This document shows, piece by piece, positions 12,001-44,558 of a stretch of 64,000 nt of DNA; the first letter of the stretch is position 1; each line of letters opens with the position of its first letter. The stretch is taken from positions 8,259,124 to 8,323,123 of the forward strand of contig CM082596.2 of the NCBI GenBank assembly GCA_040954595.2, read 5' to 3'. This DNA is from Balanoglossus misakiensis. Its lineage: Eukaryota; Animalia; Hemichordata. A program made the translations under genes and the position numbers. The notes below the pieces were generated by a model that searched no databases, was not told the origin of the DNA, and saw only the letters and a program-made list of their open reading frames with translations.

Positions 12001-12218
12001 AAAGCATCTGAACAGAATTTTGATATCTCCATTCATATGCAAATTAGGCCAAATTGAAAATTTTGCCCATATATGGTCATCAGGTCACATGACTAATTAC
12101 ACATTCACAAGGGTACTGCACCAGCTCTCATAGGCCTGCACCATTGTGCCAAATGTGAGATTTGTAGGGTCAGCCGTTTTCAAGATCTAGCTGGACAAAA
12201 AAACGACACAAGAAGAAG

Positions 12219-12250
<32 letters not shown>

Positions 12251-12467
12251 GAAGAAAAACCCCAGTAATACCAATAGGGCCCAAGCCTGCTGGGCTTGGG
12301 CCCTAAAAAAAGCCAGTAATACCAATAGGGCACAAGCCTGCTTGGCTTGTGCCCTAAAAAGCCAGTAATACCAATAGGGCCCAAGCCTGCTGGGCTTGGG
12401 CCCTAAAGAAGTAGAAGAAAAACCCCAGTAATACCAATAGGGCCCAAGCCTGCTGGGCTTGGGCCCT
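1..12467 (-). mobile_element. Nested array of >=8 non-autonomous Helentron-associated elements (HINE/DINE-like, GGGCCCAAGC subTIR family), each ~1.4-1.9 kb with 2-4 internal ~240-bp repeats
   Basis: On the minus strand each unit has a 5' hairpin AGGGCCCAAGC..GCTTGGGCCCT, a (TTC)n microsatellite, a body, ~240-bp tandem repeats, a 3' subTIR GCTTGGGCCC and a short GCTGC-TT-GCAGC palindrome ending CTATA-TT. 3' ends lie near 1443, 3073, 4467, 5929, 7337, 8899 and 10590. There is no TSD, insertions are in T-runs, and there is no transposase ORF. This layout matches known DINE-1/HINE architecture. Confidence 0.8.
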
Positions 12468-12526
12468 AATAATAAAAAACAACACGATTTCAAGAGGGTT
12501 TCGAGACCAGAGGGTCTCGAAACCCT
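12468..12526 (-). mobile_element. Orphan 5' cap of a second HINE family (GGGTTTCGAGAC hairpin plus (TTA)n)
   Basis: AGGGTTTCGAGACCAGAGGGTCTCGAAACCCT and flanking CAACACGATTTCAAG are near-identical to the 5' end of the element at 23517-25732. The paralogous site (~34085) lacks it. Confidence 0.75.
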
Positions 12527-14071: not shown

Positions 14072-17000
14072 CTATCTGCGTTCTTCCAATTTCTCGAACA
14101 TCTGTTCAATCAATCTGACCATATCGTCTCTTCCCATGGTGCTGAATATTGCCAACAGATTCTCGAAGTTGCTTTCGAAGAGGGGTCCCTCTACATGTGG
14201 ATACTTCTGTTTTGTTGTTTTCTGGTCCCTTGAAACTTGTGAGGATGATGATGTGTGCATTTCTGCAAGACAATCTTTGGTGGCATCTGTGGTATCTGTG
14301 TCATCTGTGTCATATGTCATGGTCTCTTGTCTTCGTTGGAATTGGACGCTTGAGTCTGGTTGTTGTGATGACATTGTTGCAATACCACTATCAACATTTT
14401 GTGTGTCATGAGAAGTGGTCGGGAATTCTGCAGCTGTAGTGGTGTCTTTTCCTCGTCGGAATTGGACACTTGAGCTTCGTTGTTGTGATGATGGTGACAT
14501 TGTTGCAGCTGTGACTGTGTCTTTTCCCATGGTGTTAAACTTCGCAATTACACTATGAACATAGCTTTTAGAAAGAGGTCTCTGTATTGGTCTTTCTGTT
14601 TTCTGAGCCTTCACTTCTTCATCAGCAGAATCTTGTTGGGGTGATGATGTTGATGACTGTGACATTTTTGCTGAATGACCTTTGGTGGCATCTATGTCAT
14701 ATGGGATGGCACTGGCACCTGCAGCTGTAGTGGTGTCTTGTCCTCGTTGGAATTGGACGCTTGAGTCTGGTTGTTGTGATGATGGTGACATCGTTGCAAA
14801 ACCACTATCAACATTATGTGTGTCATGAGAAGTGGCCGGGAATTCTGTGGTGTCTTTTTCCAGTTGACGTCGTCTTGTCCCTACCCATCTACGACACCAC
14901 TCTACAAAGATGTATTCTGTAACTGGTATGCCTGTTCGACCCGCCATCTCTTCAAGTGCCTTGACATCCTGGTACCCGATTCCCATATGTTCGGCCATGC
15001 AGGCGTAGTGCAAAGATGGTGCACGTTGAATGTCCATTCTCATGGTCAGTTTTCTTCTGGTTTCTTCAAGCATCCACATGATGTCACAGCGTTTCCATTT
15101 ATGTCGTAAGATCGTTGTGTCATGACCTTGACAAAGCAGGTCACAAACATCTTCTGCTTTACCAACTCTTTTGTTGTACACTTTCTTTCCCATGTCTTCT
15201 GCACGTAGCACATCGTCGAGAGTGTAAAACCCAACTTGTTCCATATCGTGGTTTGCAAGAGAATCTGCACTCAGGATAAGCTGATTCATCCTGTTGCCTG
15301 GACATGCGATCGAGAAGACATCCTGTATGTCTTTGGAAACCATCTCAAGAAGCTTGTAGCCCTCACCAATCAACTTCTTGTCTTCAACTCGTACGCAGAC
15401 ATTGACTGCCCTTCTGCCATTGGTCATAAAGACAAGACCTTCAACATCATGGCACACTTTGATACCATTTCTCCATAAGCCACTGGGCGGTTTGCCAAGG
15501 TTGGTGAAACGCTTATATAGACGGGTCTGTAATCTTGGGAAAAAGCCTGCCGTAAAGGAATCTGATTCATCATGGCATTCAAACCGTATTCCACGGTAGA
15601 TAGTCTTCATGCGATTCAATTTCCACTGATCTTTAGGCATATCATTGTCTTGAAGCCCTGGTATGAAGAAAAGTTTCTCTCCAGTCTCTGTGATATCATG
15701 TGCCGGACAGAGAAGCTCAAAATCCTCTAGAAGGTCGATGAGAAGTTTGATGTTTACACCTTCACCAAGTACATCTTCTATCTTATCCAAGGTCTGAAAA
15801 CAATTTCTGTCAAATCTGGAACTGAATTCTGCAAATAAAGGGGTGGCCAACATTGGTCCAAATATCCTGTAACACAACCAGTTTGGATCCAATACCACGA
15901 CATCTTCTCTTTCCAGAGATGACTTCTTCACAAACAAAAGCTGTACACAAGAAAAGAAATATTTTGATATATGAAAGTTTGTATGTTGCACATTACAATA
16001 TACAAGCATTTGCACGGCACATTAATCTTTAAAATCCTTAATTACACAAGAACTGTACTTAGAAGTTTAGACCTTTGATAATTTAATTTGGTCAAATTTA
16101 GATAAAACAAAATTAATGACATAGTGTAAGTGTAACCTTTAAATGAATCAATACATTAACAGACTGGTCAATATCATTGTGGAGTGAAATTCAAATATAC
16201 ATGGCCCTGCAAATTTTCTTAAAAAGTGATACTACTGTGTTCTTAGCAATGCGTAATTAATGGAGAATATGTAAATGATCAAATTTGAATGAAATGTTGG
16301 GGATCTGAAACCATATTATGTTTTTTATGATAAATGATTGCAATTATACAATATCTACTATTTGCGAATTGTTAAAGAGAAAAGTTATTGAGAAATTTTT
16401 GAGAAATTGAGAAATTTTTGAGCCTGGTATTTGAAAGAAAATGAATTAGCAACTTGTTGTTTCTTACTGACCTCTCCTATGTCATGCAGATAGTTGGTGG
16501 CTTTTTGTAAGAAACCTTCTTCAGTGATGGGATATTCTAGTATTTGTTTTAATCTTTTCACATACACTGTCCAATAAAGAGCGGGGAACGCCTTGTCACA
16601 TAATTCATTCTTCATTTCCATTATCTTGGCACAAACACTTGGAAGAGTTTTACTTGTCTAAGAATGAATAGAAATTGATAACATGTTTGTGAAGTAGTCA
16701 AGTTATTTATTGCAATAGAAGACTGGCACTCATGGCATCCAGCATTAGCATCTGTATAAGCAAATTTCCTTTCTGCATTTCTTTCAATTCACTGACGACT
16801 GAGCTAAAGTGAGAGATTTTGGCATTTGCTTTACATCATGCTAAATTTGCCAATAAATGATATTTTGTAGCATTTGATGTTTGCACAACACGATGAAGGT
16901 ACATGTTCCGTTTTTAAACATTTAGAAATATATCCTTTATGAAAGTTATAGACTAAATGAGTGGCAAAAGTTTATATATCATTACCTTTTTCTGTTGTAA

Positions 17001-18948
17001 ACAATCACGGAGCTGCTTCATTTTTGTGTCTGTAGAATCACGGCAATTCAGCAGAATTATGTCGTCACTCACTATGTCTAAATAGTCTTGAAACATAGTC
17101 TTTGCTTTTGTCAGAACTTCCTTCAGCATATGGCCAGCTGTGAAATTACATAACATAATGATTAAATACATTTATATCACTCTTTCCCATGTGCCCATTG
17201 TTCAAACCATGCATTTTATTGCATAACCCATCGTCTCGTCATTACCATGTGATGTTCTTTTGTTCCTTTCTTTGTTAGAAATTATCACCACACTCTTTTT
17301 GTTAAAAACTGTGGCTTTTTATATAAATATATAAACACATCCACATGATCCGTCTATTATTTGGCCACTATCAAATTTGGGTGAATTTTACATATCAACT
17401 TAGTTTTCACAAAAAAAAACTGCAAAGGCAACTAGTGGTAGCCTCTCTCTCTCTGATACTCCATGAGGGAATTTCTGTTGGCAACATTTCACAGATGCTA
17501 TTCGAGCATTTAAAGCCCACTAAATGCCACCCACGCTGGACTGCAGTGACAGCTTGAATATTGACTGAGCCGAAGTTCGTGGTATAAGACGCTTAGCGCA
17601 ACACTGTGCCTTGTGAATTTTACAAAATTGATGACCAATATAACGCACCATTACTCGTGCAATAAACTGTATGTACTATCAATTTTGAATGGAGTAGAAC
17701 AAGAAACTAGTGGATGCAAAAATATACTATGACAGAACTTCATGACCTCTGCGCGCGATCTGTGCAGTATGGATGTTATTTTCATGAGTGAGAAGGTGAA
17801 TTCTTCCGAGTATTTTTACGAGCGACAGCGAGTAAAAATACAGAAGAATACACCTTCTCACGAGTGAAAATAACATCCATATTGCACAGATCGCGCGCAG
17901 AGGTCATGAAGTTCTGTTATTATTGCATATGTTTCCCCAGATTTGACGAAAATCAAAGTTTCGATCGTGGCGTATTGATTTTCATTACAGTGATGCGCCA
18001 AAGGCTATGCAACCCAGAGAAGGCCGCTTCATTGGCCAAAATGACGCAACCTTTGTTATGCAAAGAAGGGTCATGTGGGGTCATTCCATCAGTGGGTTAC
18101 CTGAGGTTGTGAGATCGCAGCGATAAATTTTGAAACACTGGCGATAGCGAGAAATTTTCGTAATTTTCGAGGTTCCAAAACACACTGACAACTAAATGTT
18201 CTGTTATTCTGACGATAGTTGGGAAGGATAATAAAACAACGTGCCAGAATGTTGAAAAATCCGCATGTTTCGGCGATCAGGTTGGCTCATTTCATCGTTG
18301 GTTTAGCTCAGGTTGCAAGATAGCATCGGCAATATTTGAGAAACTGGCGATAGCGAGGGATTTTCCGAGGTTCCCAAACATACTGCCAAATAATGTTTTG
18401 TTATTCTGACAAAATTTGGGAAGGATAAGACAATGACGTCTCCGAATGTTGAAAATTCCCCACGTTTCGGCGATCATACTCCAGCTCTGCCGACGGCGTT
18501 CAATGTTTACAAACAAAACGTAGTCCGGCTTGTTTTTACTCATTTGCATATGGGTTGTGAAAAATACCACTTTGTCACGCGCACAACTAAAACAACATTC
18601 GGCTTTTTTGCGACTGAAATAAAACTTTTGTTATATCCTCCGGAGGTTTATATGAACTCCAAGTGATTGTGTAACAGAACGAGGGTTAAACTTTGAAAGA
18701 TACGATCGATTGAAGGAGAAATGGGGGATCTTATTCTTCTGGATGCTCATTTGCATATGAGCTTGCAAAAATACCAGAATTATTATTGCACGGGCCGCTT
18801 GGAATACTGTAGTACATATGCAATAAAACACATTATTATACATCTAGTGCCGAGAACAATAGATTTTGGCGTGCAATAACAAGCCGTACGGAACGGTACG
18901 TACGGAACGCGTGTTAAATATGCCTTTGGGACCGTTCAGTTTTTACGG

Positions 18949-18981
<33 letters not shown>

Positions 18982-21900
18982 AAATCCAGGGGGGGGGGGT
19001 CACTTGAATTTTGAAGTCCTAAAGGGGGGGGGGTCATCTGGTTTTTTTAAACGTTTAGGGGGGGGTCACATACTTTTGCCACCAAACTTTTGCTTTTGAG
19101 TCCACAAAATTGCAGTTTCGCGCTCTTCATTTTGCAAAATTTTCTAATGTGGGAGGGGGACACCCCCTCCCACACCCGCCCCCTTCATTCTCCACCTCAT
19201 TTCATTTTTTGCTAGTTTGTCTAGTGTACCAGGGCAGAGTGCTTGCCACCCCAACCCCACCGATGATAATATTTAACAAAGTAAATACATAAGGGAGAAT
19301 TATCGTTTAAACCATTTCGCATAATTGATAGTTTCGCGCTGCATCTTCTATATACTAGAAGTTTTATAAATGATGTCATGACGTGGATGATGCCAAATCT
19401 TCTACTTTGAGTGGAGTGGTAAAAGTAAAATTGGTCCTCCCAAACATTGAGATAATTTGCTTTTGAGTTCATTAATATGCAACTTTGAGCACCGTATTTT
19501 ACAAAATTTTCTTATGTGGGGGGGGGGGGGGGGGGGTCATCATATTTTTGGGTCTGTCAAAGGGGGGGGTCATCATTTTTTGGTCCTGGACGAAGGGGGG
19601 GTACTCGGCCATGATTTTGAAAACCGATGACACAATCTTGCCAGCCCCCCCCCTGCCGTAAAAACTGAACGGTCCCTTAGTTTCAAGGCGCCCCAAACTC
19701 ACCGTGTACAGGTATGCGTTGTTTTGCGGACGGTTTCAAGACACCCCCGTTCCAACGCACGTGCGCACACGTAAACAAAAAAGAAAGATGGCTGCTCACT
19801 GAGTCAACTGAGCGGTTTTCGATCGATTGTATCGGCATTTTGGGCGTTTTGAAAGCCAAGTAACATGCAAAACAAGAACTAACGGAGATGTAAGATGTAT
19901 AATAATAAGGTTATTACGAAAATACCGCAATGTATGCACTCGGACATTAGCGCAGCGCATCGCCCTCCGCTGCGCGTCGGGCGATACTCAGCGCTAATGT
20001 CCTCGTGCATACTTTGCGGTATTTTCGTAATAACCTCCTCATATTATAATACATCTGGCACTGAGAACAATAGAATTTAGCGTGCAATAAAAAGCCGTAC
20101 GGAACGGTACGTACGGAACGCGTTTTAAATCAGTCTTGAGTTTCAAGGCCCCCCATCTCACCTGTACAGGTATGCGTTGTTATGCGGACGGTTTCAAGAC
20201 ACCCCCACTCCAACCCACGTAAACAAAAAAGAAAGATGGCTGCTCACTGAGTCAACTGAGCGGGTATCGATCGATTGTATCGGCATTTTGGGCGTTTTGA
20301 AAGCCAAGTAACAAGATACTCGGCGCTAGTGTCCTCGTGCATACTTTGCGGTATTTTCGTAATAACCTCATATTATCTGAAGCAATACAAGAATACTTAT
20401 TGTCAATCAGAGCTGACAACACCCACCTAGAGCCATATTGACTCTCTCCAACTTATCAGCTCGACTTGCAACCAATATCACCACTGGTTTCTTGTATCTT
20501 TCACCAGGCTCACCAAAGGAATACCTGTCCATGTGGGTTGTTCCTTTCAGAAACCGCAACCAAAACAAAATCTATAAATAAGAATATTTGTATCATGAAA
20601 TATTATTATTATTTTTGAGGCATATTTATAAAAGGGATCATGAATATGAGATTATAATTCAAGAATTGATATTTTGGGGATGGTCAGTTTCTTCTGCCTT
20701 GGGGCATGGAAAGTGATAAATGATGCAATACATATGGCCTTCCAGTCTCATGCATGTTTAGTCAATTTACTGTGAAGATTCTTACCTGTGGGAACACATC
20801 TTCAAAGGTGTTGAGTTGACCATTCTTGTCTGTAGCTTTGAACACCAATATGGAGATAGCATTGGGTGCTCCCAGAAACATGTTATGAGTGACGTAATAC
20901 TCGGCCTGGCCGGCAAAATCCCAAACACTGCACTTTCCTACGCCAGGAATATGAACACTTTGGACATCAATACCAGGTGTGGGAATGTGTCCACTGTGTT
21001 CAAATTCTGTGGTTGTTTCTTCACTCTTTGATAAGGAAAAGTGAAAGAAAAAAATTTCACTATATACAAACACAAAATGTCAACATTTTTTCAACCATGC
21101 ATATGCTTTAATTATCCAAAGTTTACCTGTGGCATTCTGTTAGTAGTTTCCTAATATGCACCATACATATAATGTGAATGTTACAGCTAAACTAAAACTT
21201 TTATGCAAATTAATCAATATCAACATACCTTCTGAAGTGACTTGAATAGTGTAGTCTTACCAACTCCACCATCTCCAGCAAAGAACAACTTAAAAGTGTC
21301 ACATTCCTCACCTGGTTCCTGCATCAGGTCATTGAACTCATTTTGTTTCTGTTTGAATAAAAATAACAAACAAATACATTTTATGCTATATTCCGAAGTT
21401 TTGACACCAAAGTTGTATCACATTCATATGAATGAACATTTTTAATTCATAAGAATAAGGCTAGCACATTTCAGGTTATATATTGATAAAATTCATGACA
21501 AAAGACAAAAAAAATTACACTCACCCTAATGTAATCCAATAGCACATCCTCAGCAGAGCGACTTTCAGCGACATCAAGTGGTGTCTTTCCGGTCTAGGTT
21601 TTATTAGGAAAAAAAGAATTAACAATGAATTATGATGTTGATATTGATAAGATATTATATTACCATGGCCTGTGCTGCGCATTTTAATTGGTCGAGATGA
21701 ACGACGTCACTGACCACAAATACTCAGTAATGGTTTGTTTACATGCCCGTAAATCTGAATAGTAATATTAGCAAACAGTTCAGTGAATACAACATTTTGC
21801 GTAACACAAGTTCCGGGGCCCCTAGTCTTTTGCGTGGGCTCGAGCAAGGCCACAAATTCATGGGCTCGAAAGCCTCGCCCATGAATTTTTGGCTTTCCCC

Positions 21901-24900
21901 TCGCCCATAAACAAATGTTAATGGTCAGGGTGTCGTCCATTATTTCTATAATAGTAGCAATAATGTACCTGATATAATGAGAAATAATTCGAAAGTTTTT
22001 AAATTCAAAAATAATGTTTAAGTCAATTCTATTAAGAATAACAACATCATGTGACATCATGAACAAAATCTCAATCCAACTAATTTATATTGATATCAAA
22101 ACCCTCTACAATGTAGTAGATTAGCCAACAGATATTGTGAAATTGAATCTTTTACAATTATCAGATAATTTTGAATGATACCATCAAAAGGGAAATGAAC
22201 ATTTATGCATTAAGAGATAAAAATAAAAATAAAGAGTTATAATCGTCCAATGATTAAATCATCAAAAATAATTTTATACTAGATCCCTGCCTCCTTAATA
22301 TTTCAGAAAACAGATTTAAAGAAAAAAGATAACACACAGAGATGTTTAAATAGAAATGTAAGAAATTAGCTGTGTTAGGATTGGCATATTGTCATGAGTC
22401 AACAGTTTTATAACTGACCATGTTGGAAGTAGTTTTGGTTAAACTCGGGCTTATTGGTACATGCCCTACAATTTAACACAAGATACATGTATATGGTGAA
22501 TATGCTTTATCAACATTATTTTGCTTTATGATTGTTTTGTTAAAATAGTTTAATAAATTGCACATATAAACTTTCCTATCATTTCAAAGTCAATGATTGT
22601 GAAGAAACTTACATATTAACAAAATGAAAGTTGATCAGAAAACATGGTAGAGTGTCATGGAATGAAATATTGGAAAATAGAAAAATACCTGATTTTTGCA
22701 GTCAATATCAGCTCCATATTGTAACAGCAGTTTCACAACTTTTCCATAAGCCCCGTGATATCCTTCGGCCATTGCTGCCATATGAAGTGCTGTGTTGCCA
22801 TCCTATACAAAGAAACAAAAGCATAAACAGCGCACCAACAAAGTTACTGGAATCATTATCAGAGGTACAGAAAACTAGTCACAGAATGGTAGTACATTTT
22901 TGTTAAGGCAGTTTCCTTGTGAGTATGTAATTTCTCGCCAAAACTGTAGTGTTCAACTAACCTAAATAGGTTCTCTGTTTGTTGAGAGATATATTTAAAG
23001 AATAACTAAAACAAAAACTAGCTGTCACTGTATCTTCTTTAAAATAAGGATCCATAGCATTATCAAACAAAGAAACATATTTATAAATACATTCTTTATT
23101 GATACATTATCCTGCAGAAGTCATGTTGGTATTTACCTTGTTTTGTATGTTAGCATCAGCTTTGTGTTCCAATAACAATCTGACACGGCCTTCATCACCA
23201 GACCTTGCTGCCTTGTGCAAAGGTGTGTTTCCATCCTGTAAGTAATGAAGGAGGAGCATGAGAATAATGTCACAAAAATTGAAATGTAATGTGAGATTTC
23301 CTTAAACAAACAAACAAACAAACAAATGTTAATATGTTGATTAGAATTAACCCGTAGAAGTCATGGTGGAATTTACCTTGTTTTGTATGTTAGCATCAGC
23401 TTTGTGTTCCAATAAGAATCTGACATGGCCTTCAACAACACCCTCTGCTGCAAAGTGCAAAGGTGTGTCTCCATTCTGTAAGTAATGAAGGAGGAGCATG
23501 AGAACAATGTCACAAATATAGCTGTGAACAGCAATAAGCGGGTTTCGAGACACTACTAGCCCTATTGGTTCGCCTGGAGATAGATTTGTGCATATTTAAT
23601 TACTGCATTAGTTGTTCTATCCCTCCAAATGCCAAGGGTGTATGTGCTGTGGATGCTGAGATGTGGAAAAGTAGGTCAAAGGTCACGTGAGGTCACGCTT
23701 AATATGAGCAGAAAATGTTTACGCTATACTGGTCCATGTCAAACAAAAACCAGACCTGTAGCCCTACTGGTTTGCCTGGAATTAGGTATGCACATAATTA
23801 ATGAGTTAGGCAGGTGTCACAGGTGACTCTAAAATTTGGCTTCTTATTTTGGTCCCGTCCACCCAAACACCTAAGCTGTACCTGCTCTGGATGCCGAGAT
23901 ATGTGAAAGTAGGTCAAAGGTCACCCAAGGACATCCAAAGTTTGGGAAAAAAAATTGTCCCCATACTGGTCCATGTCCGACTAAAACCAGACCTGTAGCC
24001 CTATTGGTTTGCCTGGAATTAGGTATGCACATAGTTAATGAGTTAAGCAGGTGTCACAGGTGAGCCTTAAATTTGGCTTCTTATTTTGGTCCCGTCCACC
24101 CAAACACCTAAGCTGTACCTGCTCTGGATGCCGAGATATGTGAAAGTAGGTCAAAGGTCACCCAAGGACATCCAAAGTTTGGGAAAAAAATTGTCCCCAT
24201 ACTGGTCCATGTCCGACAAAAACCAGACCTGTAGCCCTATTGGTTTGCCTGGAATTAGGTATGCACATAGTTAATGAGTTAAGCAGGTGTCACAGGTGAG
24301 CCTTAAATTTGGCTTCTTATTTTGGTCCCATCCACCCAAACACCTAAGCTGTACCTGCTCTGGATGCTGAGGTATGCGAAAGTAGGTCAAAGGTCACCCA
24401 AGGTCACCCAAAATTTGGGGGAAAAATTTGACCCCATACTGGTCCATGTCCGACAAAAACCAGACCTGTAGCCCTATTGGTTTGCCTGGAATTAGGTATG
24501 TACATAGTTAATGAGTTAAGCAGGTGTCACAGGTGAGCCTTAAATTTGGCTTCTTATTTTGGTCCCATCCACCCAAACACCTAAGCTGTATCTGCTCTGG
24601 ATGCTGAGATATGCGAAAGTAGGTCAAAGGTCACCCAAGGTCACCCAAAATGTGGGGAAAAAATTTGACCCCATACTGGTCCATGTCTGACAAAAACCAG
24701 ACCTGTAGCCCTATTAGTTTGCCTGGAATTAGGTATGCACATAGTTAATGAGTTGAGCAGGTGTCACAGGTGAGCCTTAAATTTGGCTTCTTATTTTGGT
24801 CCCATCCACCCAAACACCTGAGCTGTACCTGCTCTGGATGCTGAGATATGCGAAAGTAGGTCAAAGGTCACCCAAGGTCACCCAAAATTTGGGGAAAAAA

Positions 24901-25647
24901 TTTGACCCCATACTGGTCCATGTCCGACAAAAACCAGACCTGTAGCCCTATTGGTTTGCCTGGAATTAGGTATGCACATAATTAATGAGTTGAGCAGGTG
25001 TCACAGGTGAGCCTTAAATTTGGCTTCTTATTTTGGTCCTATGCTGCAGACTATTGCACCGACCAGAATTCTACAAAACTATGTGGCCATAGCTTAAGTA
25101 TAGTGGAATAAGTATAGGTATAGATTTCATAAAAAAATTAATATAAAAAAATCGGTCGATTTTCCATATTATTTTTTCCAGTTGGAACTGATTGTCGGAA
25201 GGTAGGCTAGCTGCACACAAAATTTGAAGCTGATCAGCCCAGCGGATGTTGAGATATTGGGCATAAATCTAAAATCCTAGGGGGCCATTGCTTAACCATG
25301 GAAAGTATAGGCCAATGGCTGGGTCCAATGGTCATGGAAAATATGAAAAATAATGCTTTAAAAATCATCTCCTCAAAATCGGCAAGGACTTAGACATTGA
25401 AATTTGGCATATAGGACCCTGGCCATATGGTCCACAAAGTTTCTGAACAGAATTTGGATTCTTCATTTTTTATGCAAATTAGACCAATTTAAAAGTTTAA
25501 ATCCAAGATGGCTGCCAGGTCATGTGACCTGTTGCCATAGTGACATGATCAAAAAATTACTTGCTTTGAGTTTTACCTATGAGCCAAATTTCAAGTCATT
25601 GGGTGCAACGGTCTTCGAATAGCGGCTGTTTTTAAAAGTGGGAAGAA

Positions 25648-25684
<37 letters not shown>

Positions 25685-28600
25685 CAACACGATTTCAAGA
25701 GGGTTTCGAGACCCCTCTGGTCTCGAAACCCTAAAAATTGAAATGTAATGTGAGATTTCCTTCAATAAACAAACAAACAAATGATTATATGCTGATTAGA
25801 ATTAACCTGTAGAAGTCATGTTGGTATTTACCTTGTTTTGTATGTTAGCATCAGCTTTGTGTTCCAATAAGAATCTGACATGGCCTTCAACAACACCCTC
25901 TGCTGCAAAGTGCAAAGGTGTGTCTCCATTCTGTAAGTAATGAAGGAGGAGCATGAGAACAATGTCACAAAAATTGAAATGTAATGTGAGGTTTCCTTAA
26001 ACAAACAAACAAATGTTTATATGTTAATAAGAATTAACCTGTAGAAGTCATGTTGGTGTTTACCTTGTTTTGTATGTTAGCATCAGCTTTGTGTTCCAAT
26101 AACAATCTGACACGGCCTTCATCATCAGACCTTGCTGCTGCAAGGTGCAAAGGTGTGTTTCCATCCTGTAAGTAATGAAGGAGGAGCATGAGAACAATGT
26201 CACAATAATTTAAATGTAATGTGGGGTTTCCTTAAACAAACAAACAAACAAACAAACAAACAAATGTTTATATGTTGATTAGAATTAACCTGTAGAAGTC
26301 ATGGTGGAATTTACCTTGTTTTGTATGTTAGCATCAGCTTTGTGTTCCAATAACAATCTGACACGGCCTTCATCATCAGACCTTGCTGCTACAAGGTGCA
26401 AAGGTGTGTTTCCATCCTGTAAGTAATGAAGGAGGAGCATGAGAACAATGTCACAATAATTTAAATGTAATGTGGGGTTTCCTTAGACAAACAAACAAAC
26501 AAACAAACAAATGTTTATATGTTGATTAGAATTAACCTGTAGAAGTCATGGTGGAATTTACCTTGTTTTGTATGTTAGCATCAGCTTTGTGTTCCAATAA
26601 CAATCTGACACGGCCTTCATCACCATACCTTGCTGCAGAGTGCAAAGGTGTGTCTCCATCCTGTAAGTAATGAAGGTGGAGCATGAGAATAATGTCACAA
26701 TAACTGAAATGTAATAAGTGGTTTCCTTCAACAAACAAACAAACAAACAAACAAATGTTAAGTTGTTAATTAAGAATTAACCTGTAGAAGTCATGGTGGA
26801 ATTTACCTTGTTTTGTATGTTAGCATCAGCTTTGTGTTCCAATAACACTCTGACACGGCCTTCATCACCAAACTTTCCTGCTGCAGAGTGCAAAGGTGTG
26901 TCTCCATTCTGTAAGTAATGAAGGAGGAACATGAGAATAATGTCACAAAAATTGAAATGAAATGTGAGATTTCCTTAAACAAACAAACAAACAAACAAAC
27001 AAATGTTTATAATTGTGTTGAGTAGCAATAACCTGTTGAAGTCATGGTGGAATTTACCTTGTTTTGTATATTAGCATCAGCTTTGTGTTCCAATAACAAT
27101 CTGACACGGCCTTTATCAACATACTTTGCTGCATAGTGCAAAGGTGCGTCTCCATCCTGTAAGTAATGAAGGAGGAGCATGAGAACAATGTCACATAAAT
27201 TGAAATGAAATGTGAGGTTTCCTCAAACAAACAAAGAAACAGATAAATGTGTAGTTGTTAATTAGAATTAACCTGTAGAAGTCACGGTGGAATTTACCAT
27301 GTTTTGTATGTTAGTTTTTTTTAATTGTTATTTATATATGCATAAATAATATAATAAAACTCTTAATTGTATCCATAGTGGCCATTCACCCAAAAGAAAT
27401 AACTATTTGCACACTCTTTGCAGCAAGAGAAAACATTTGATTGTGTGCACGGTTTAAATGACACTCTATAAAAGAAATGTTTTATGACATCCATGACTGC
27501 AGTCCATGAAAGATTCATCCACTGTGGTCATGAAGTCGACTACATGTGTAGCCACTTTCATTACCCCTTTAAATGAAGTAATAAGTCAGTTCATGTACCC
27601 TATTCTTAGCATTGACGTCTGCACGATGGCTTATCAACACCCTGACAGCATCCAATCCACCTTCCCAGGACGCTGCATGCAATGCTGTGAAACCATCCTG
27701 AAATGAAGACGTTTAAAGTTGGAATAAAAATGAAAATGACATCATCGTTCAATTTGATACTTTGCATGTGTGTCAACTGCTTACTTTTTCTCGAAGAATT
27801 CAAAAAATGTCATCACTGTGAGCTTCAGTGCACAGCTATTATTATAATAAATGTACTTGAAACCCGATGGATAATAATGGTAATTTTTTCTGAGGTGTAG
27901 TGGTTATTCACTATTACTGAAATACATGTATGACAAAGAATGATTGAACTGACAATTTTTTTCCTTTTGAGAACTGATTTCAGTAACAAAGATGTCTCTT
28001 GCATGCCATATTACCAGGTAATGTACTTATCATGCCTGTTATCAGTACAGGGACTAGCTGTCACACCAGGTACTGGGAATATTGGGACAGGATGGAAGAC
28101 CACAAATTTGATAAGAGCTAGTAGCTTCATTTTCTATTTGAGTAACTCGAACCATTCACATGTGATAAATATTTCAAGTGAAACTGTTTTGAAATGAGCT
28201 ATAAAATGACACAGGGGAATTGTCACAAAACTAGCAATGTGAGATTTGAAATCCAGATGCAGGGCATTAAGCTGCTAGCTGTTAAATTGGTCCATCTAAA
28301 TAAGCTTACTGATAGGTATATACATGAACACCTTATCGATGCCCAATTGAGACTGCATGTCGCAATTTGAACATGCTATGTATTAAAACGGTGCCGCACC
28401 CATTTAATCAGCCTCCATACAATCAGTACACAGCCATCCTGGTATGCGTCGCCAAGAGATGACAAAATGATGCAAATGCAAGTAATATGGCTTATAAATG
28501 GTGAGGATTTTAGACGATAGGGAATATATTTGAAGAATTTACCGTGGAAAAAAATATGCGAAATTTTGCAGCTATAGGGGCTTTAAAGCTTCATGTTTTT

Positions 28601-31204
28601 AAAATAGCAGACTAACTTTGCAAATTTTCAGTACAATCGTGAGTTTAACAAATGTATTTCCTATCACAATTAAGTAATGCTAAAATGGAAATTATATTAT
28701 ATCATGCTACCGTCCGCAATTCTGATTGGACGAGAGCGATGGTAACATACTGTTTTACCACTGCCGGCAGAGGTTAACAGGCCCCTGAACTAGCATGCAG
28801 CAGGGAAAATGTGCGATTAAACCACAGCCAAATAAATAACATAAAAACACTTGAATTTACACTTACTACACTAAACACTAAATAAAACACTTGAATGTTT
28901 TATTTTGGAACTGCTCTGCTATGAATATTTTGCACTTTTGTCACTTTTTGTCACCTGCTTCATGTTTAATGCTCGATCCCGGGCCACTCTGTTTACATTC
29001 ATCGTCGCCATGTTGGTTCACGATCGTAATTTCTCTTTCTGACGCCGTTTCGGTAAGATAATGATATGTCACAAAAACAATAGTTGATATAATTATATAA
29101 TAGCAATAACCCCCGCCTCAGTCGGGTATACACTCGATTTGGGTACAATTCGCTCCATATAGCACTCGCCTAACGGCTCGTGCTATATGTCTCGAATTGT
29201 ACCCAAATCTCGTGTATACCCGCCTGCGGTACTGGTAGGGGTTATTGCTTAATTATATTATACCAGTATATTGATGGTGTAAATCACGCTATTTTATTGG
29301 TCAAGACACGACAGGTGACTGTGATATATTCGTCACATACCACAGTCATATATCACGCAAAACTCATAGTCAAAGAAAATGCCTATTTAAAATGTTTTAT
29401 GCAAAGTTTCAATATACTGGTATAATATAATAGCAATAAAACACCCCCAGCCATGGTATACCACGAGATTTTGACCAGTTCAACTTCATATATGCACGAG
29501 CGATAGCGAGTGCGTATATGTTGTGAACTGGTCAAAATCTCGTGGTATACCATGATGGCTGGGGTGTTTTATGCTTAATTATAATTCTGATATTATAATT
29601 CCAATTCTGTGCTGTTTCACAAATGGTTATCCTTTTGTTATAAAATTTGTTACTATGTGATGACTTATATGAAACACTTACCCAGCCATCGTATACACCC
29701 CTTGCATTGACATCATGTCCATGAGCTATTAGCGACTGAATCGTTTCAATGTCACCATCCCTTGCGGCATTGATGAGAAGCTGTAACATTCAATAAGCAA
29801 AACTAGTCATTTTTGTAATATTCTCCAAATGCAATCATAAACAGAAACAACGTAATAGGAAAAGAAGAATTATGAAGATAAACCGTCAGTGTGGATAAAA
29901 TGATGACATCATATAAATTAAGTGTTGAAGTTTATTGCCAGTCTGTCCATTTATATTTTTCACAATGTGACACACTCTACAACTTCATGTAAGCGTAAAA
30001 ACTGCATCCACCTAATGCTTCAGTCCACCGGAATCATGAATATAATTTCAGTTGACTGCAGACATTATTCTGAAACACCAGTTACAATTAAATCAGTGTT
30101 TTATCTAGATGGGGGGATTCAGCCCCTGTTGAAATGTTGGCACCCCCTAGTAATTTGTCAAGGGGGGACCAGTGCCCCTAAAAATGACGTCATTCACATG
30201 TTAGAGATATTACTAGTATATTCCCCCATTGCCAGAGTGGAATCCCCCCAACAAATTCTGGCAAAGGGGGAATTACCCCCCCCCCCCCCTGTTGAGGCTA
30301 GTTATACTTTGCGAAACAACGAAACAGCGAAACGACGAAACCATTATTAAAATAGGGGCCAGTCATCAAGACGGTGGCGTATGATTTTTTTTAAAGTTTC
30401 CAAATTAAAACGTAAGCGAGCCAAGAAAACTACAGGTCAGATAAATTGTTTTCTCGGAAATTCAACATTAGAATTTGGCGTTGGAAACAAACGGCGGGTC
30501 GCCAGTTCCTGGTCTGCGGCCTGGTACTATGTAGTGGTAGAGTCGACGTCGTGTGCGCGCAAACGATTCATGCCAAACTGCTACATATACACAGTGAATA
30601 TACGCGCACGCACAACGAAACCACAACAGATCGAAACCTCAAAATGCGGCAGCAACTGACACTATTTCCTTAAATACCACAAGGCGGGGAGGCATGAATT
30701 GCAATTAAGATAATAAAGAAATTTCGACAATGGTACTGTGTTGTGTGAGTTACATGTGTTTCTATATATAACTACTACTCTTACCCCCCATCAGTGTTTG
30801 ACCCTCGAAAGCTTACGGACACCACTGCTTTGTTTCAACTAATCCTTAGCCCTGTGAATATACTCGTACATTGACCTTTTGGGGCGGGATTCTTTTTTGG
30901 CGCGCAACCACTAGTACCAGGCCGCAGACCAGGAACTTATTTGGAAACTTTTAAAATAATAATACGCCACCGTCTTGATGACTGGCCCCTATTTTAACAA
31001 TGGTTTCGTCGTTTCGCTGTTTCGTTTCGCTGTTTCGTTGTTTCGCAAAGTATAACTAGCCCCTGTTGATGCCATCCTGGATGAAACACTGTTTAATGTT
31101 TTCATCTTGATCAAACAGACCATATTTTCACTGGTGCAAGCAGCTGAACGCAACTTAGTTCAAAGGTCACTTACCCGTGGGTATTTATATTCCTGGGAAG
31201 CCAT
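14072..31204 (-). CDS. ROCO protein copy A: ankyrin repeats-ROC GTPase-COR-death domain (DAPK1-like, no kinase domain), ~1307 aa, 19 coding exons
   Basis: Exons with GT/AG and consistent phases: 31175-31204 (MASQEYKYPR), 29682-29780, 27599-27697, eight ankyrin cassettes (27058-27156, 26807-26908, 26562-26660, 26315-26416, 26064-26165, 25832-25930, 23377-23475, 23137-23235), 22689-22802, 21525-21593, 21229-21348 (P-loop GDGGVGKT), 20786-21025 (TPGID, WDFAGQxEYYVTH), 20427-20571 (VILVASRAD), 16986-17137, 16472-16657 (YLHDIGE), 14072-15940 (VVLDPNWLC COR, then death-domain-like C-terminus). Confidence 0.85.
17345..20380. mobile_element. Intronic stack of hairpin-bearing non-autonomous elements (possibly Crypton-derived), including a tandem dimer
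   Basis: Long imperfect palindromes at ~17731-17918 and ~19902-20048, and a direct repeat starting at ~18835 and ~20043. The equivalent intron in copy B is only ~244 bp (41348-41591). Confidence 0.5.
18928..19676. mobile_element. MITE with GGGACCGTTCAGTTTTTACGG TIRs and poly-G tracts (PIF/Harbinger-like)
   Basis: TIRs GGGACCGTTCAGTTTTTACGGC / GCCGTAAAAACTGAACGGTCCC with ttt/tta flanks. It is absent from the second copy of the host repeat (~20135). Confidence 0.7.
21657..21970. mobile_element. Interspersed repeat, same family as 45625-46010
   Basis: Shared sequence TATTACCATGGCCTGTGC...TTAATTGGTCGAGATGAACGACGTCACTGACCAC... lies in different introns of copies A and B, implying independent insertions. 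Confidence 0.6.
23137..27320 (-). repeat. Tandem array of 8 single-ankyrin-repeat exon+intron cassettes (~232-251 bp), plus a truncated remnant near 27296-27315
   Basis: Each exon encodes [D/N]G[N/D]xPLHxxAxx(x)xxxGxVRxLLEHKADANIQNK and is phase 0-0. Introns are near-identical and carry a variable (AAAC)n tract. Confidence 0.9.
23517..25732 (-). mobile_element. Complete non-autonomous Helentron-like element (HINE with ~6 central ~236-bp repeats) inserted in an ankyrin-cassette intron
   Basis: It interrupts the conserved intron motif cacaaaaattgaaatg within the A/T run and has no TSD. It carries the 5' hairpin AGGGTTTCGAGAC..GTCTCGAAACCCT, (TTA)n, a 3' subTIR GTCTCGAAACCC and a GCTG-TTCA-CAGC palindrome. 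Its central repeats are homologous to those in 1-12467. Confidence 0.85.
28695..29580. mobile_element. Two adjacent non-autonomous elements ending in long palindromes (Crypton-like structure)
   Basis: Palindromes at ~29100-29251 (AGCAATAAC..CTCGCCTAACGGCTCG..GTTATTGCT) and ~29430-29578. The block is absent at the paralogous position (ggaaattat|aattctga, ~46340). Confidence 0.55.
30296..31061. mobile_element. Non-autonomous TIR DNA transposon with 8-bp TSD (Merlin- or MULE-like)
   Basis: Long TIRs start GGCTAGTTATACTTTGCGAAACAACGAAACAGCG. The TSD CCTGTTGA is on both sides, and the paralogous empty site has a single cctgttga at ~47455. Confidence 0.85.
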
Positions 31205-32274
31205 GGTTTATGTCACTGACATTGTGCTGGAATACATAAACAAATAATTGAGACCAACAACCGTTAGCCAATGCTCATAGTTCTATGGTGTCATCGGGAT
31301 GTAGACTGCATGCATGGATCACGTCTGTAAAAAGTCAATAATTAAATTCAGCATCTACCGGTAGTTGTCAAGATCATGATGTCACACGAATTTGTCCCAG
31401 AACTTCTTTCAATTTTGCAGGAACTCCAAGTTTTACACAGCTATATATACACCAAATGTAGACTTTTAAACTAAATAGAATGTCTACACTCACTGATGGT
31501 CAAGTAAAAAAATACCTATGAAGGACGCTATCCCACACCTTTATTAACACATAAAATCACATCAGCACCCACCCCTGGAGCCCTACTTGTCAGAGAGGAC
31601 AGGTACATGTTCCACTTTGGCAATATCCTGATCGTACCATCGCCTCCTGGTATCTTCCAAATGCAGTGACTTCAAAGTTAAGCAATTAAGATATATTGTA
31701 CGAACAAGTTGGTTTTTTGGACCAAAGCCACGAATGTGATTAATACAGGTGTTAAATGTCACAACGTAGCCACACTGTACCCAAAACTACTTAAACTTTA
31801 AGTATTAAAAGACAGCTTGCATATTAACTCAGAAGTCATCGCAAAACAACATTGTTGATATTTTAAACAGTAACTGGCACAAAGTTACACTGAAGTAGGA
31901 GGGACCTGTTTAATAACTTTGAAGTTTTGTGTAGCTAGGATTTTATCTGTTAGGTGGTACCACGAAGCGACGATCGCGGTACAGTCAGGGTATTGTCGCC
32001 AATTCAAGTGGAACATTTTGCTGCCAAGCACAAGATGAGGTTGGAGTTATGCATGTATATGAGGCTGACAGTTTGTTTACAGAAAATAAAATACTGACTG
32101 GATTTCAAGTCAAAAACATCAAGGCAAATGAAACTACAAATTAATTACATGTAATGATTCTCGTTTCCATTATAAGGTTTGATATGGGCAAGTTTCCATT
32201 AAGGCTTGTTACTTACGGGAACGGACATTCTAAAATGTGACAACTACATGTATTGAGTTTCAGTGCCATGTATA

Positions 32275-32463
32275 CTGTAGAACAGGTTATGTTAGCGAGC
32301 AATAAATTTTCGCGAAATACGCGAGAGCCAAAAGAACGTGAAAATAAAAAGTTGCATAATTTTTTTTCCAGCGATACTGATGCAGTGAAATACGAGAACA
32401 CGAAAATTACTCCCCGCATAACAGTTGCCTCTTCTGAGATCGCAAAAATAACCTGTTTTACAG
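32275..32463. mobile_element. TA-flanked MITE (Tc1/pogo-like), related to 53190-53398 and 62098-62306
   Basis: TA-CTGTAgAACAGGTTAT...ATAACCTGTTTTACAG-TA with the shared core gcgagcaataaattttcgcgaaatacgcgagagccaaaa. Confidence 0.7.
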
Positions 32464-32742
32464 TATATCGATTTGCATGCAAAGAAACTTTAAATGTATT
32501 AATTGCGTGCATGTACAAGTAAAAATTAAATAAACTAGCACGAACCCTGTGCATACATTGTGTCGATCAATTGCATTTTCCATTCAATTTTTTGGGGTTT
32601 CTGTTCTGTTTCATAATTCCTGCCATAAAGTACATTAAAAGCATTAGCAAAACTTTCCCTTGGCACTGAGTGATATTTCCATATGGCGGCTTAATTCCTG
32701 TTTCTCATGTTAACACAAGACAGCTGTTATAAAATGTACTCA

Positions 32743-33140
32743 CCATAAAGTGTCTTGGTGGCAGACTTGGTACTTGCAAAAACGACTTCAAGTTGGAACT
32801 AACGTTTAGACACGAAGGCAGCAACTCTTATATTGGCTGATTCTTCAGATGGCTGTACTTATTGGTAGATCAAGAAAATCGTATGATAAGCACCAACCAA
32901 TCAGTGGCCTCTTGGTATCACACAGATCTGGGGAATTAAGCAAAAAAATTTAGAAGCGATGTTTTTTTTGGACCAAAGCCACAGTTTTTGATAAATGCAT
33001 ATCCCTGCTACGTGCCCTTGGACCACATACCAATCAGGTGGTGTCCAAACTGATCAAAGCTCACGTGGACATGCCTAAAAGTCGTGCAAGAGACAAATGG
33101 GGATTAAAAGTCAACACAAGGTGAATGGAATTTCCCCAGA
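32743..33140 (-). promoter_or_regulatory. Putative first exon and promoter of ROCO copy A (CCAAT boxes, kappaB-like site)
   Basis: A GTGAGT donor at ~32742 is conserved in copy B (~48440). CCAAT/ATTGG boxes lie near 32833, 32861 and 32897. GGAATTTCCCC is at 33127-33137. Confidence 0.35.
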
Positions 33141-33905: not shown

Positions 33906-34215
33906 TAGTCTCGGTTACCCAGACCCCTCTGCTTCTTCCGTTGGGCACTCCAGAAAGAGTAAACATAAAAAAAACATGCTGAGAAGTGCTGGACCTGCTG
34001 AAACTGTCCACGAATTGAAAAGAGAGAGAGAGAGAACTTTGGCAAATAGTTTTCTAATATCGTCATATCATAATATCAAATGTTATTAATGTCGACCATC
34101 ATGCATCGCTTTTGTCTCAGAGATTTGCCCGGAGATTTGTCTATGGTGTTTCCCCAGACCCTCTTTCTGGAATGCCCAACGGAAGAAGCAGGGGGGGTCT
34201 GGGTAACCGAGACTA
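33906..34215. mobile_element. MITE with ~55-bp TIRs TAGTCTCGGTTACCCAGAC (Academ-like termini)
   Basis: Inverted repeats at 33906-33959 and ~34161-34215. The right half recurs at ~12527-12657, where the HINE stack has inserted into it. Confidence 0.65.
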
Positions 34216-35619
34216 ATACTTCCAGTGCATTGGGAATCACATCATCTCCACCATCTTTCCAGCCATTCCCTGTAAAACTTGATTTTTCCAACACTGGCTC
34301 CGGCTCAGACATGGAAGTACGCGATAACGGGATCATACACAACTCTGCAGTCAGTATGGGCAAGTGGTTCCCCCAAGATTGGACATACTAGCCGAGATGA
34401 GAGTAACAAAGCTGAACTTGAACCCTTCGACCCCCAGTTCCCTCTTTAGAGTTCCAACCTCACCATAGCAAACAATGGGTTTGGACTGAACCATTGTGGT
34501 GAAAGGGTGACGAGACAAACCGTTGACATCAGTGACATACCAGTACTCATTATAGAAAACTGACTCTTCTTTTGCACCAATAAACACTTCTTCAAACCTA
34601 AAGGAAATGTCATAAAACATCAGGACAGTCAATTAACTTATTAAAAAAACATCCATTTGACTTTGTATCATAAACGGACAATAACTCCAGTTTTCTAGTG
34701 GTGTTGTGATGTGGTAAAGATTTTCAGCATGTTCATATGATTCTATGGGCAGTTTCCAATGAAAATATTTGAAAATACTTGAAAATTTATGAATTTTAAT
34801 GCAAGGCAGGTATTTTGAATTTCCCCATGAATCTATCCAGACAACTCAAATATGAATGTGTACAACAAACACATAAATGAACATTTGGACACACCAGGCA
34901 AATTTCAATAAAACCTTCATCCTATTAAAGAGCATCAATTGTACATATTATTTGATAAAAGTAAAATGCATTTTTTTTAAATCTAACTACACTATTGTAC
35001 TAGCGCAAAATGCCTAGGAAAGAAATACCATTCTACCAATCAATATTATTCTACTCTCAGGTAACTTTTCCTTTCGAAGTCTCTCGTTCAAATGAGTGAT
35101 TTTCTGGGTATTATAAAATGAGAAAAGATATTAATTTTCTGATTTGTTTGACAAGGATTTAACTCCAAGTAAAGTTATTCATGTTAACTTTATGAATGAT
35201 TGGTGTCCATGTCCATGCGTTGCGTCTATTGACATCCTGTGAATAGACAAATTCTTAAAATTCTGATATTCATTTCACACACATGGTTTTGGGTTTAAGT
35301 GGGTGGAATTCGACACAAATGAATTCCGGTTTTGACATATTTTTCTGTCATTTTTCAGCACAAGTTCTGCATTCAGTCTATCTGCGTTCTTCCAATGTCT
35401 CGAACATCTGTTCAATCAATCTGACCATGTCGTCTCTTCCCATGGTGCTGAATATTGCCAACAGATTCTCGAAGTTGCTTTCGAAGACAGGTTCCGTTAC
35501 ATGTGGATACTTCTGTTTTGTTGTTTTCTGGGCCCTTGAAACTTGTGAGGATAAGGATGTGTGTAGATCTGCAAGACAATCTTCGGTGGGAATTGTGTCA
35601 TATGAGATGGCACTGGCAC

Positions 35620-37358
35620 CTGCAGCTGTAGTGGTGTCTTTTCCTCGTTGGAATTGGACGCTTGAGTCTGGTGGTTGTGATGACGGTGACATCGTTGCAA
35701 AACCACTATCAACATTTTGTGTGTCATGAGAAGTGGTCGGGAATTCTGCAGCTGTAGTGGTGTCTTTTCCTCGTTGGAATTGGACGCTTGAGTCTGGTTG
35801 TTGTGATGACGGTGACATTGTTGCAATACCACTATCAACATTTTGTGTGTCATGAGAAGTGGTCGGGAATTCTGCAGCTGTAGTGGTGTCTTGTCCTCGT
35901 TGGAATTGGACGCTTGAGTCTGGTTGTTGTGATGACGGTGACATTGTTGCAATACCACTATCAACATTTTGTGTGTCATGAGAAGTGGTCGGGAATTCTG
36001 CAGCTGTAGTGGTCTCTTGTCCTCGTTGGAATTGGACGCTTGAGTCTGGTTGTTGTGATGACGGTGACATTGTTGCAATACCACTATCAACATTTTGTGT
36101 GTCATGAGAAGTGGTCGGGAATTCTGCAGCTGTAGTGGTGTCTTGTCCTCGTTGGAATTGGACGCTTGAGTCTGGTTGTTGTGATGACGGTGACATTGTT
36201 GCAATACCACTATCAACATTTTGTGTGTCATGAGAAGTGGTCGGGAATTCTGCAGCTGTAGTGGTCTCTTGTCCTCGTTGGAATTGGACGCTTGAGTCTG
36301 GTTGTTGTGATGACGGTGACATTGTTGCAATACCACTATCAACATTTTGTGTGTCATGAGAAGTGGTCGGGAATTCTGCAGCTGTAGTGGTCTCTTGTCC
36401 TCGTTGGAATTGGACGCTTGAGTCTGGTTGTTGTGATGACGGTGACATTGTTGCAATACCACTATCAACATTTTGTGTGTCATGAGAAGTGGTCGGGAAT
36501 TCTGCAGCTGTAGTGGTGTCTTGTCCTCGTCGGAATTGGACGCTTGAGTCTGGTTGTTGTGATGACGGTGACATTGTTGCAATACCACTATCAACATTTT
36601 GTGTGTCATGAGAAGTGGTCGGGAATTCTGCAGCTGTAGTGGTGTCTTGTCCTCGTCGGAATTGGACGCTTGAGTCTGGTTGTTGTGATGACGGTGACAT
36701 TGTTGCAATACCACTATCAACATTTTGTGTGTCATGAGAAGTGGTCGGGAATTCTGCAGCTGTAGTGGTGTCTTGTCCTCGTCGGAATTGGACGCTTGAG
36801 TCTGGTTGTTGTGATGACGGTGACATTGTTGCAAAACCACTATCAACATTTTGTGTGTCATGAGAAGTGGTCGGGAATTCTGCAGCTGTAGTGGTGTCTT
36901 GTCCTCGTCGGAATTGGACGCTTGAGTCTGGTTGTTGTGATGACGGTGACATTGTTGCAAAACCACAATCAACATTTTGTGTGTCATGAGAAGTGGTCGG
37001 GAATTCTGCAGCTGTAGTGGTCTCTTGTCCTCGTTGGAATTGGACGCTTGAGTCTGGTTGTTGTGATGACGGTGACATTGTTGCAATACCACTATCAACA
37101 TTTTGTGTGTCATGAGAAGTGGTCGGGAATTCTGCAGCTGTAGTGGTCTCTTGTCCTCGTTGGAATTGGACGCTTGAGTCTGGTTGTTGTGATGACGGTG
37201 ACATTGTTGCAATACCACTGTCAACATTTTGTGTGTCATGAGAAGTGGTCGGGAATTCTGCAGCTGTAGTGGTCTCTTGTCCTCGTTGGAATTGGACGCT
37301 TGAGTCTGGTTGTTGTGATGACGGTGACATTGTTGCAATACCACTGTCAACATTATGT
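35620..37358 (-). repeat. Coding tandem repeat, 126-bp unit x ~14 (42 aa: MSPSSQQPDSSVQFQRGQETTTAAEFPTTSHDTQNVDSGIAT)
   Basis: Near-identical units are visible in the DNA and in ORF 35378..37330. About 3 diverged copies lie in copy A (~14320-14850). Confidence 0.95.
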
Positions 37359-37360
37359 AT

Positions 37361-44530: not shown

Positions 44531-44558
44531 GAATAAGCACACACCTGTAATGATTACC

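Follow-up and report, generated by a model that had tools for sequence, protein, structure and literature searches.

The window analysed here, i.e., 64,000 nucleotides (nt) of the acorn worm Balanoglossus misakiensis (assembly GCA_040954595.2, contig CM082596.2, positions 8,259,124 to 8,323,123; coordinates below are counted from its first letter), holds two tandem paralogues recognised by self-comparison, gene A (ca. 14072-32750) and gene B (ca. 35378-48450), both with arrays of short, near-identical exons that each encode one ankyrin repeat (hereafter cassettes). A motif scan placed 12 cassettes on the minus strand, eight in A (23137-27156) and four in B (B1-B4, 43554-44395), each 99 or 102 nt long, in phase 0 and with GT-AG borders; an earlier note made from the letters alone had described these eight and four phase-0 exons. 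In A, the first six (25832-27156) are A1 27058-27156, A2 26807-26908, A3 26562-26660, A4 26315-26416, A5 26064-26165, and A6 25832-25930, followed by A7 23377-23475 and A8 23137-23235 (together spanning 23137-23475). Upstream of A1, at 27298-27314 (minus strand), the 3' end of a truncated cassette persists together with its donor, marking a lost or partial cassette. Cassette A1 matches Pfam Ank (E 3.2e-7) as a 33-residue repeat with a TPLH-type motif, and the ankyrin repeat returned 372 matches in the PDB. Introns between cassettes measure 133-149 nt, those among A1-A6 with a (TTTG)n tract, except the A6-A7 intron, where a 2.2-kb mobile element with a 237-bp internal tandem repeat (23519-25733) separates the two cassettes, so that the continuous tandem array previously ascribed to A is in fact interrupted. 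Owing to the arrangement of one exon per repeat, all in phase 0, any gain or loss of a cassette keeps the reading frame. The predicted spliced model of gene A comprises 1307 amino acids (aa), with no internal stop and GT-AG at 18 of 18 introns, in the order N-cap, repeat 2, eight cassettes, terminal repeat with a 5-residue loop, C-cap, ROC, COR, and death domain.

Eleven of the 12 cassettes encode distinct peptides (mean identity 78% in protein and 90.5% in DNA); A6 and A7 are identical, and B2 and B3 differ by one change. The helix-1 peptides are exactly those listed before (YAAKYV, SAAGKFG, SAARYG, LVAARSD, LAAARSD, FAAEGV twice, and KAARSG in A; SAARDG, SAVGGYG twice, and KSAGFG in B), and the downstream non-cassette repeat differs as reported, MAEGYHGAY in A and MGKGYNRDY in B. 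Stops occur in none of the cassettes and all three 3-nt indel variants are in frame; frameshifted or dead cassettes were rejected, as was pure tandem-repeat noise as an account of the array. The structural half of the repeat is invariant and the other half hypervariable, with replacement far exceeding silent change. Codons 22-34 show no replacement and two silent singletons, in line with the near-invariant scaffold noted before. Variation had been assigned to helix 1, where it is indeed present, but 16 of the 34 aligned codons vary, including 1, 3, 4, and 14-21. The introns, on the other hand, are not almost invariant as had been stated: the 11 introns compared differ by 7.4% on average in pairwise comparison, with 36 variants in 121 columns, and are quiet only in the final 40 nt before the acceptor (4 variants in 39). 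Their density, 0.30 variants per nt, served as a neutral yardstick, against which codons 8-16 carry, at their first and second positions, 1.06 variants per nt (3.5x intron density, p 3.5e-5) and codons 22-34 are six times sparser (p 0.002). Across the exon, 27 variants fall in the 68 first and second codon positions vs 6 in the 34 third positions, and because of this concentration neither a mutation hotspot nor import from diverged donors fits.

Diversifying selection on the cassettes, suspected in the earlier note, holds in tree-based and tree-free tests. Codon models fitted in this analysis to the 12 cassettes (M0 and M2a, two trees) gave an omega of 3.9 overall under M0 and of 7.9 on 52% of sites under M2a (likelihood-ratio test p 3.3e-5, second tree p 7.4e-5), and variation is uneven over exon and intron. 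Because recombination can inflate codon-model tests, we added a tree-free tally in which each distinct variant counts once: the whole exon has 30 replacement vs 4 silent variants (p 0.09 with kappa 1 and 0.02 with kappa 3), codons 1-21, a region picked post hoc, 30 vs 2 (p 0.001-0.006), and codons 22-34 none vs 2. Between A and B, the pN/pS ratio (replacement to silent differences) is 1.0, 3.0, and 5:0 for the non-cassette ankyrin exons and 0.40-0.91 for ROC-COR. Recent neutral exon duplication, with the first half of the repeat released from constraint and drifting, could draw on the few silent events, the broken gene B, the mobile elements accumulating in both genes, and the strongly relaxed purifying selection usual for young repeats (PMC5120217; statements on this and the other papers cited here extend to the parts of them available). 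Relaxation, however, predicts an omega of about 1 and a density at or below that of introns, not 3.5 times above it, and is at odds with the nearly untouched third positions, the in-frame indels, and the absence of stops from all 12 cassettes, and we regard drift as improbable. The same source describes PRDM9 as a comparable positive case (PMC5120217).

The position of the variable sites had been likened to the binding groove randomised in designed ankyrin repeat proteins (DARPins). With what we take to be the seven DARPin-type surface positions, in a register obtained by alignment to DARPin 6MOL, the likeness stands in part: five of the seven vary in the cassettes, the remaining two never do, and framework positions make up many of the variable sites.

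Gain and loss of cassettes, as proposed before, follow from the unequal counts in A and B, the identical neighbours (A6 and A7, and nearly so B2 and B3), and the truncated relic. Conversion among cassettes, proposed alongside, is not established but suggestive: incompatibility affects 122 of the 378 informative pairs of sites, including 17 of the 36 formed by intron sites, and reticulation exceeds clonal simulations with p 0.008 under equal rates, a value that becomes 0.07 and 0.20 with rate heterogeneity. Cassettes of A and B intermix on the tree, where only the last ones (A8 and B4) pair, and 21 of the 32 A-B pairs lack any silent difference at the invariant codons, which offer few sites (10.7). 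The two genes diverge by 2.5-4.7% in introns flanking the array, 8-11% in ROC introns, and 10.8% at silent COR sites, a pattern consistent with patchy exchange between the paralogues.

That all cassettes are in phase 0 with near-identical splice signals, and that the repeat exons of brown-algal ROCO genes are alternatively spliced (PMC11378527), might also point to diversity generated chiefly within the animal, by combinatorial skipping of cassettes in mRNA or somatic rearrangement. The sequence does not require it, given that the eight A cassettes in series give an open frame (obligatory mutually exclusive splicing was rejected), and the window has no inverted or spare intronic cassettes of the kind known from Ectocarpus: apart from the one truncated relic, all 12 matches lie in the arrays and none on the plus strand. 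We thus find it rather unlikely as the main source of diversity.

Part of the COR exon was present in five sequencing runs, none recorded as RNA, and four of them were compared over 22600-23300: X1 (367 contigs) and X2 (398) from one sample, and X4 and X5 with one contig each at depth <4, which were left unused. The X1/X2 contigs are short and unphased, and the variant tally covers 40 of 65 rows. As they differ from the window in several places across all contigs, these fixed differences designate the sample as another haplotype or a close species. Loose contig ends, read by eye, contain helix-1 words absent from our 12 cassettes (YAARRD, AARRDGGEG, and SAARDGDEG). Eight of the 10 differences listed in the terminal repeat fall in codons 12-18 and eight of 10 are replacements, including residues found in neither A nor B. 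Among the rows listed, the new cassette variants amount to two silent changes and four replacements, of which one, A28V, affects the scaffold. These new variants, as alleles or further loci (the two being indistinguishable here), indicate a repertoire larger than 12 cassettes.

Downstream of the ankyrins, an architecture of ankyrins, ROC, COR, and death domain in an animal protein with no kinase, as first proposed, is supported by Pfam and a structure model. A and B are ROCO GTPases by sequence, having a ROC domain in which the G1 P-loop and the G3 motif are present, then COR: Pfam Roc matches one exon with E 2.7e-6, both genes have GDGGVGKTT, TPGIDV, and WDFAGQ, and COR follows directly (Pfam COR-B, E 1.1e-7; Foldseek top matches 3DPT/3DPU, E 7e-9). 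Similarity to NB-ARC is limited to the P-loop, weak, and below the Pfam cut-off. An AlphaFold2 model of the last exon of gene A, run with a 9-row alignment, has COR in residues 1-280, helices with a predicted local distance difference test score >90 at 292-364 and 592-621, and disorder at 366-577. Residues 284-615 superpose on the death domain of IRAK2 (3MOP_K, VIA-align Z 10.5, root-mean-square deviation 1.9, 93/93), Pelle (Z 10.1), and MyD88 (Z 9.5), with many death domains in the match list, although for helical bundles the tool advises caution under a Z of about 13, a level that none of these values reaches. Foldseek showed COR but no death domain among the matches listed, and searching the PDB by sequence with this exon gave nothing of note (one match, E 0.54).

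Two features of the locus had been overlooked, namely the coding repeat that splits this predicted death domain and the element that cuts gene B. A Ser/Thr/Gln-rich repeat lies between helices 4 and 5, as ca. 215 residues predicted to be disordered in A and 13.8 copies of a 42-aa unit in B; the segment from a conserved Trp to ES(N/T)FENL is 29-68 aa long in 18 of 22 relatives vs ca. 248 in A and >600 in B. The death domain is predicted by the model to close across the insertion, and it is this insertion of 200-600 residues between helices 4 and 5 that accounts for profile searches missing it. In B, the underlying 126-nt tandem repeat (35620-37358) has 98% matches and can be read without a stop in a second frame over 640 codons.

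The exons of gene A, all on the minus strand, begin with a first coding exon of 10 codons with a phase-0 donor (31175-31204), matching the N-termini of the Ptychodera proteins P0007/P0160, present in both genes, and spliced directly to the N-cap in the models. They continue with the N-cap ankyrin exon (29682-29780), the non-cassette ankyrin repeat 2 in a single exon (27599-27697), the cassettes, the terminal ankyrin repeat with its variable loop (22689-22802), and six exons with C-cap, ROC, and COR start (16472-21593). In the last exon, COR and death-domain helices 1-4 occupy 14849-15940, the insertion, predicted to be disordered and with degenerate 42-aa units, 14210-14845, and helices 5-6 with the stop 14072-14167. 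Gene B, on the same strand, has its first coding exon at 47568-47597, N-cap (46440-46532) and repeat 2 (44891-44989) within 44891-46532, its four cassettes, the stretch from terminal ankyrin, C-cap, ROC, and COR to death-domain helices 1-4 at 39434-43225, and a remainder of the last exon (35378-37360) with the coding repeat followed by helices 5-6. These last two parts are separated by an inserted element of 2073 bp with 11-bp terminal inverted repeats (37361-39433), within which the predicted frame ends at 980 aa. By this model, two possibilities are that gene B has become a pseudogene or that the element has to be spliced out. The element contains internal 51- and 83-bp repeats, and its terminus has no second copy in the window. 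The 237-bp-repeat element of the A6-A7 intron also occupies much of 1-12500; at least eight copies of ca. 1.4-2.2 kb, with internal tandem repeats of 237-239 bp, lie in 1-12500 and 23519-25733, many head to tail and with terminal hairpins and microsatellites, an anatomy that we take to be Helentron/HINE-like.

Several further observations concern the surroundings of the two genes. An upstream exon end, with an ATG and then a donor site, is conserved in both (32738-32754 and 48436-48452) and probably belongs to a non-coding 5' exon that carries an upstream ATG. The ROC intron of gene A (17138-20426) spans 3.3 kb vs 244 nt in gene B and probably contains further insertions. The non-coding regions downstream of the genes (12528-13420 vs 34085-34982) are 95% identical and the 3' untranslated regions differ by 1.8%, less than most introns, for which recent conversion or regulatory constraint are possible reasons. 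Outside the locus are a U2 small nuclear RNA gene (58972-59162, minus strand, 191 bits, the sole Rfam match) and two flanking housekeeping genes, one with an enoyl-CoA isomerase-type exon (51900-52190, minus strand, Pfam ECH_1) and the other with plus-strand exons at 55100-62100 that have no Pfam match and that we take to resemble ZFYVE26/spastizin.

The closest matches to A and B are hemichordate proteins labelled 'DAPK1-like', from Ptychodera (55%), Glandiceps (46%), and Saccoglossus (42%), the nearest named ones being Ptychodera flava XP_070549583 and XP_070550841 (55% in COR), Glandiceps XP_077996865, and Saccoglossus XP_006815029. In a FastTree tree of 58 rows (labelled or top-ranked matches covering at least 190 of 286 query positions), both genes fall in a clade of 22 rows in which every named member is hemichordate, with a multicopy Ptychodera cluster as sister. 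The database label would invite the view that A and B are DAPK1 orthologues or fragments with kinase exons outside the model. Yet the window, read in all six frames, contains no kinase motif, the start exon runs directly into the N-cap in the models, full-length relatives likewise begin with ankyrins, and kinase-bearing true DAPK1 lies far outside the clade on a long branch; a kinase motif was found in one of 156 scanned relatives, many of them fragments (193 relatives found, 150 listed). On these grounds orthology to DAPK1, which we consider very improbable, was rejected. Other named relatives include proteins of Asterias, Amphiura, and Branchiostoma whose tails are of the CARD, death, caspase, GT4-conflict, or trypsin kind (37 scanned, 20 named); the Branchiostoma proteins P0023, P0026, P0027, P0030, P0049, and P0052 have close COR and differing C-terminal tails of these five kinds, which suggests effector swapping in an amphioxus ROCO family. 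High-identity ankyrin arrays occur in seven of 37 proteins with at least three ankyrins (six genes), and as their sequences differ and they sit in separate clades, the arrays appear to have expanded separately in acorn worms, echinoderms, and amphioxus. The Glandiceps array is variable at the same positions, 1, 3, 8, 11, and 12, which are commonly variable in any ankyrin repeat. In the part of the literature covered, we found no account of this kinase-less ANK-ROC-COR-death family or of a split death domain.

We postulate that A and B are germline-diversified intracellular non-self sensors, a reading that we hold to be fairly probable. Short, near-identical phase-0 units would mispair, and unequal crossing-over and gene conversion would bring about in-frame gain, loss, and patch exchange; such mispairing would homogenise the scaffold and splice signals, while selection would retain new residues on the ligand side. 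A ligand bound in the ankyrin groove could then switch the ROC-COR GTPase dimer, upon which the death domain would nucleate the assembly of an adaptor, with cell death or NF-kB signalling as the outcome, and the extended disordered segment separating helices 4 and 5 might tune or space that assembly.

A number of points weigh against the sensor reading. Twelve short sequences with four silent variants make a small sample, and at kappa 1 the tree-free test over the whole exon is of marginal significance. The site-model tests can be inflated by recombination, and restricting the tally to the seven DARPin-type positions fixed a priori yields 14 vs 1, which is not significant (p 0.09-0.26). Variation extends to the helix-capping Gly and helix 2 and could destabilise the repeats, and in X1/X2 the silent variants, at codons 4 and 7, together with A28V indicate a scaffold less fixed than the 12 copies suggest. 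Reticulation loses significance with rate heterogeneity, and the pairwise homoplasy index (PHI) test gives p 0.045-0.13. Young repeats of proteins in general diverge fast horizontally (PMC5120217). Pfam Death stays below its cut-off of 22.6, with 12.5 bits (E 0.17) for the tail and 15.3 (E 0.022) for the relative P0009, and gene B is possibly a pseudogene.

The targets of such diversifying sensors could also be other than pathogens, i.e., self and non-self or internal parasites, as in allorecognition, gamete compatibility, or the detection of transposon or symbiont proteins. A surface role is unlikely because the model shows neither a signal peptide nor a membrane segment, and no somatic fusion system is known from solitary acorn worms, which counts against such targets. 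In their favour, the only functionally proven receptors with such repeats, the fungal HNWD proteins, serve allorecognition, although the fungal paper, in the part available, itself argues for general immunity (PMC13449251). On balance we deem a non-pathogen target unlikely. Our preferred reading of non-self sensing may extend further, and we tentatively suggest, as a possibility that we ourselves find doubtful, an unrecognised NLR-like receptor class in acorn worms, echinoderms, and amphioxus, which would combine a ROC-COR switch, swappable death-fold or enzymatic effectors, and a natural-DARPin ankyrin sensor diversified by germline cassette shuffling and exon skipping, with the death-domain repeat as a second tunable element.

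As putative receptors, the two genes carry the repeat-shuffling design of brown algae and fungi to an invertebrate closely related to the chordates, adding another, third type of repeat on a ROCO core, and point to a family now concealed as a whole under the 'DAPK1-like' label. They offer a testable candidate for cytoplasmic recognition diversity in animals without adaptive immunity, an immune-type context for the ROC-COR switch of LRRK2 and DAPK1, and natural data on the ankyrin positions and indels varied by evolution, while a predicted death domain that tolerates a repeat of 200-600 residues between two of its helices is a structural oddity.

Among known systems, the brown-algal ROCO genes with leucine-rich repeats (LRRs), which encode candidate immune receptors, a parallel already drawn in the earlier note, stand up well to comparison: they encode one LRR per exon, with positive selection and alternatively spliced repeat exons, and share with A and B the ROC-COR core, a separate exon for every repeat, exons duplicated in tandem, positive selection at positions of the repeat, and clusters with pseudogenes, of which gene B may be one (PMC3341825, PMC11378527). 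Their LRR exons, however, are 72 nt long and in phase 2, whereas ours encode ankyrins in 99 or 102 nt and phase 0 in an animal protein with a predicted C-terminal death domain, and the spare or inverted intronic repeat exons of Ectocarpus ROCO genes (PMC3341825) have no counterpart in our window. The fungal HNWD/HET-E NLRs, of which HNWD are functionally proven receptors with this repeat signature acting in allorecognition, share near-identical repeats with few hypervariable sites, repeat gain and loss, and a transposon-rich setting, and may also have exchange between paralogues and a cell-death effector in common with A and B (PMC13449251). They differ in having NACHT/NB-ARC in place of ROC-COR, while A and B place the putative sensor at the N-terminus and the putative effector at the C-terminus, give each repeat an exon to itself, and have 3-nt indels in helix 1; the internal conservation of 78% (aa) and 90.5% (nt) seen here is a different statistic from the Psim of 0.7 in the fungal paper (PMC13449251).

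DAPK1 has the same order of ankyrins, ROC, COR, and death domain, and lends its name to the relatives, but A and B are kinase-less, multicopy, and fast-evolving, with a variable ankyrin number and an interrupted death domain, and the model leaves no room for a DAPK1-type calmodulin-regulatory segment, for which no aimed search was made. The deuterostome 'DAPK1-like' proteins belong to the same family and have a death-like tail, some with high-identity ankyrin arrays of their own, and are set apart by their short linker between helices 4 and 5. Animal ROC-COR proteins with immune signalling domains are also known from the ROCO expansion with CARD and death domains in Trichoplax (PMC4104024) and the TIR-ROCO proteins of Aplysia (PMC9334734), with no ankyrin cassette arrays reported in the available parts of these papers, and expansions of death-fold systems have been described in marine invertebrates by a paper whose available part does not mention the present family (PMC8195603). 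DARPins (PMC8229355, 6MOL) have a constant scaffold with a variable hairpin tip and helix 1 in common with the cassettes, which in contrast keep two of the usually randomised positions invariant and vary in framework positions and repeat length. Judged by these likenesses, A and B likely work like the brown-algal ROCO-LRR proteins and the fungal NLRs of high internal conservation and belong to neither, and what is new here is a repeat-shuffling design with ankyrin repeats in an animal lineage near the chordates, together with a predicted split death domain.

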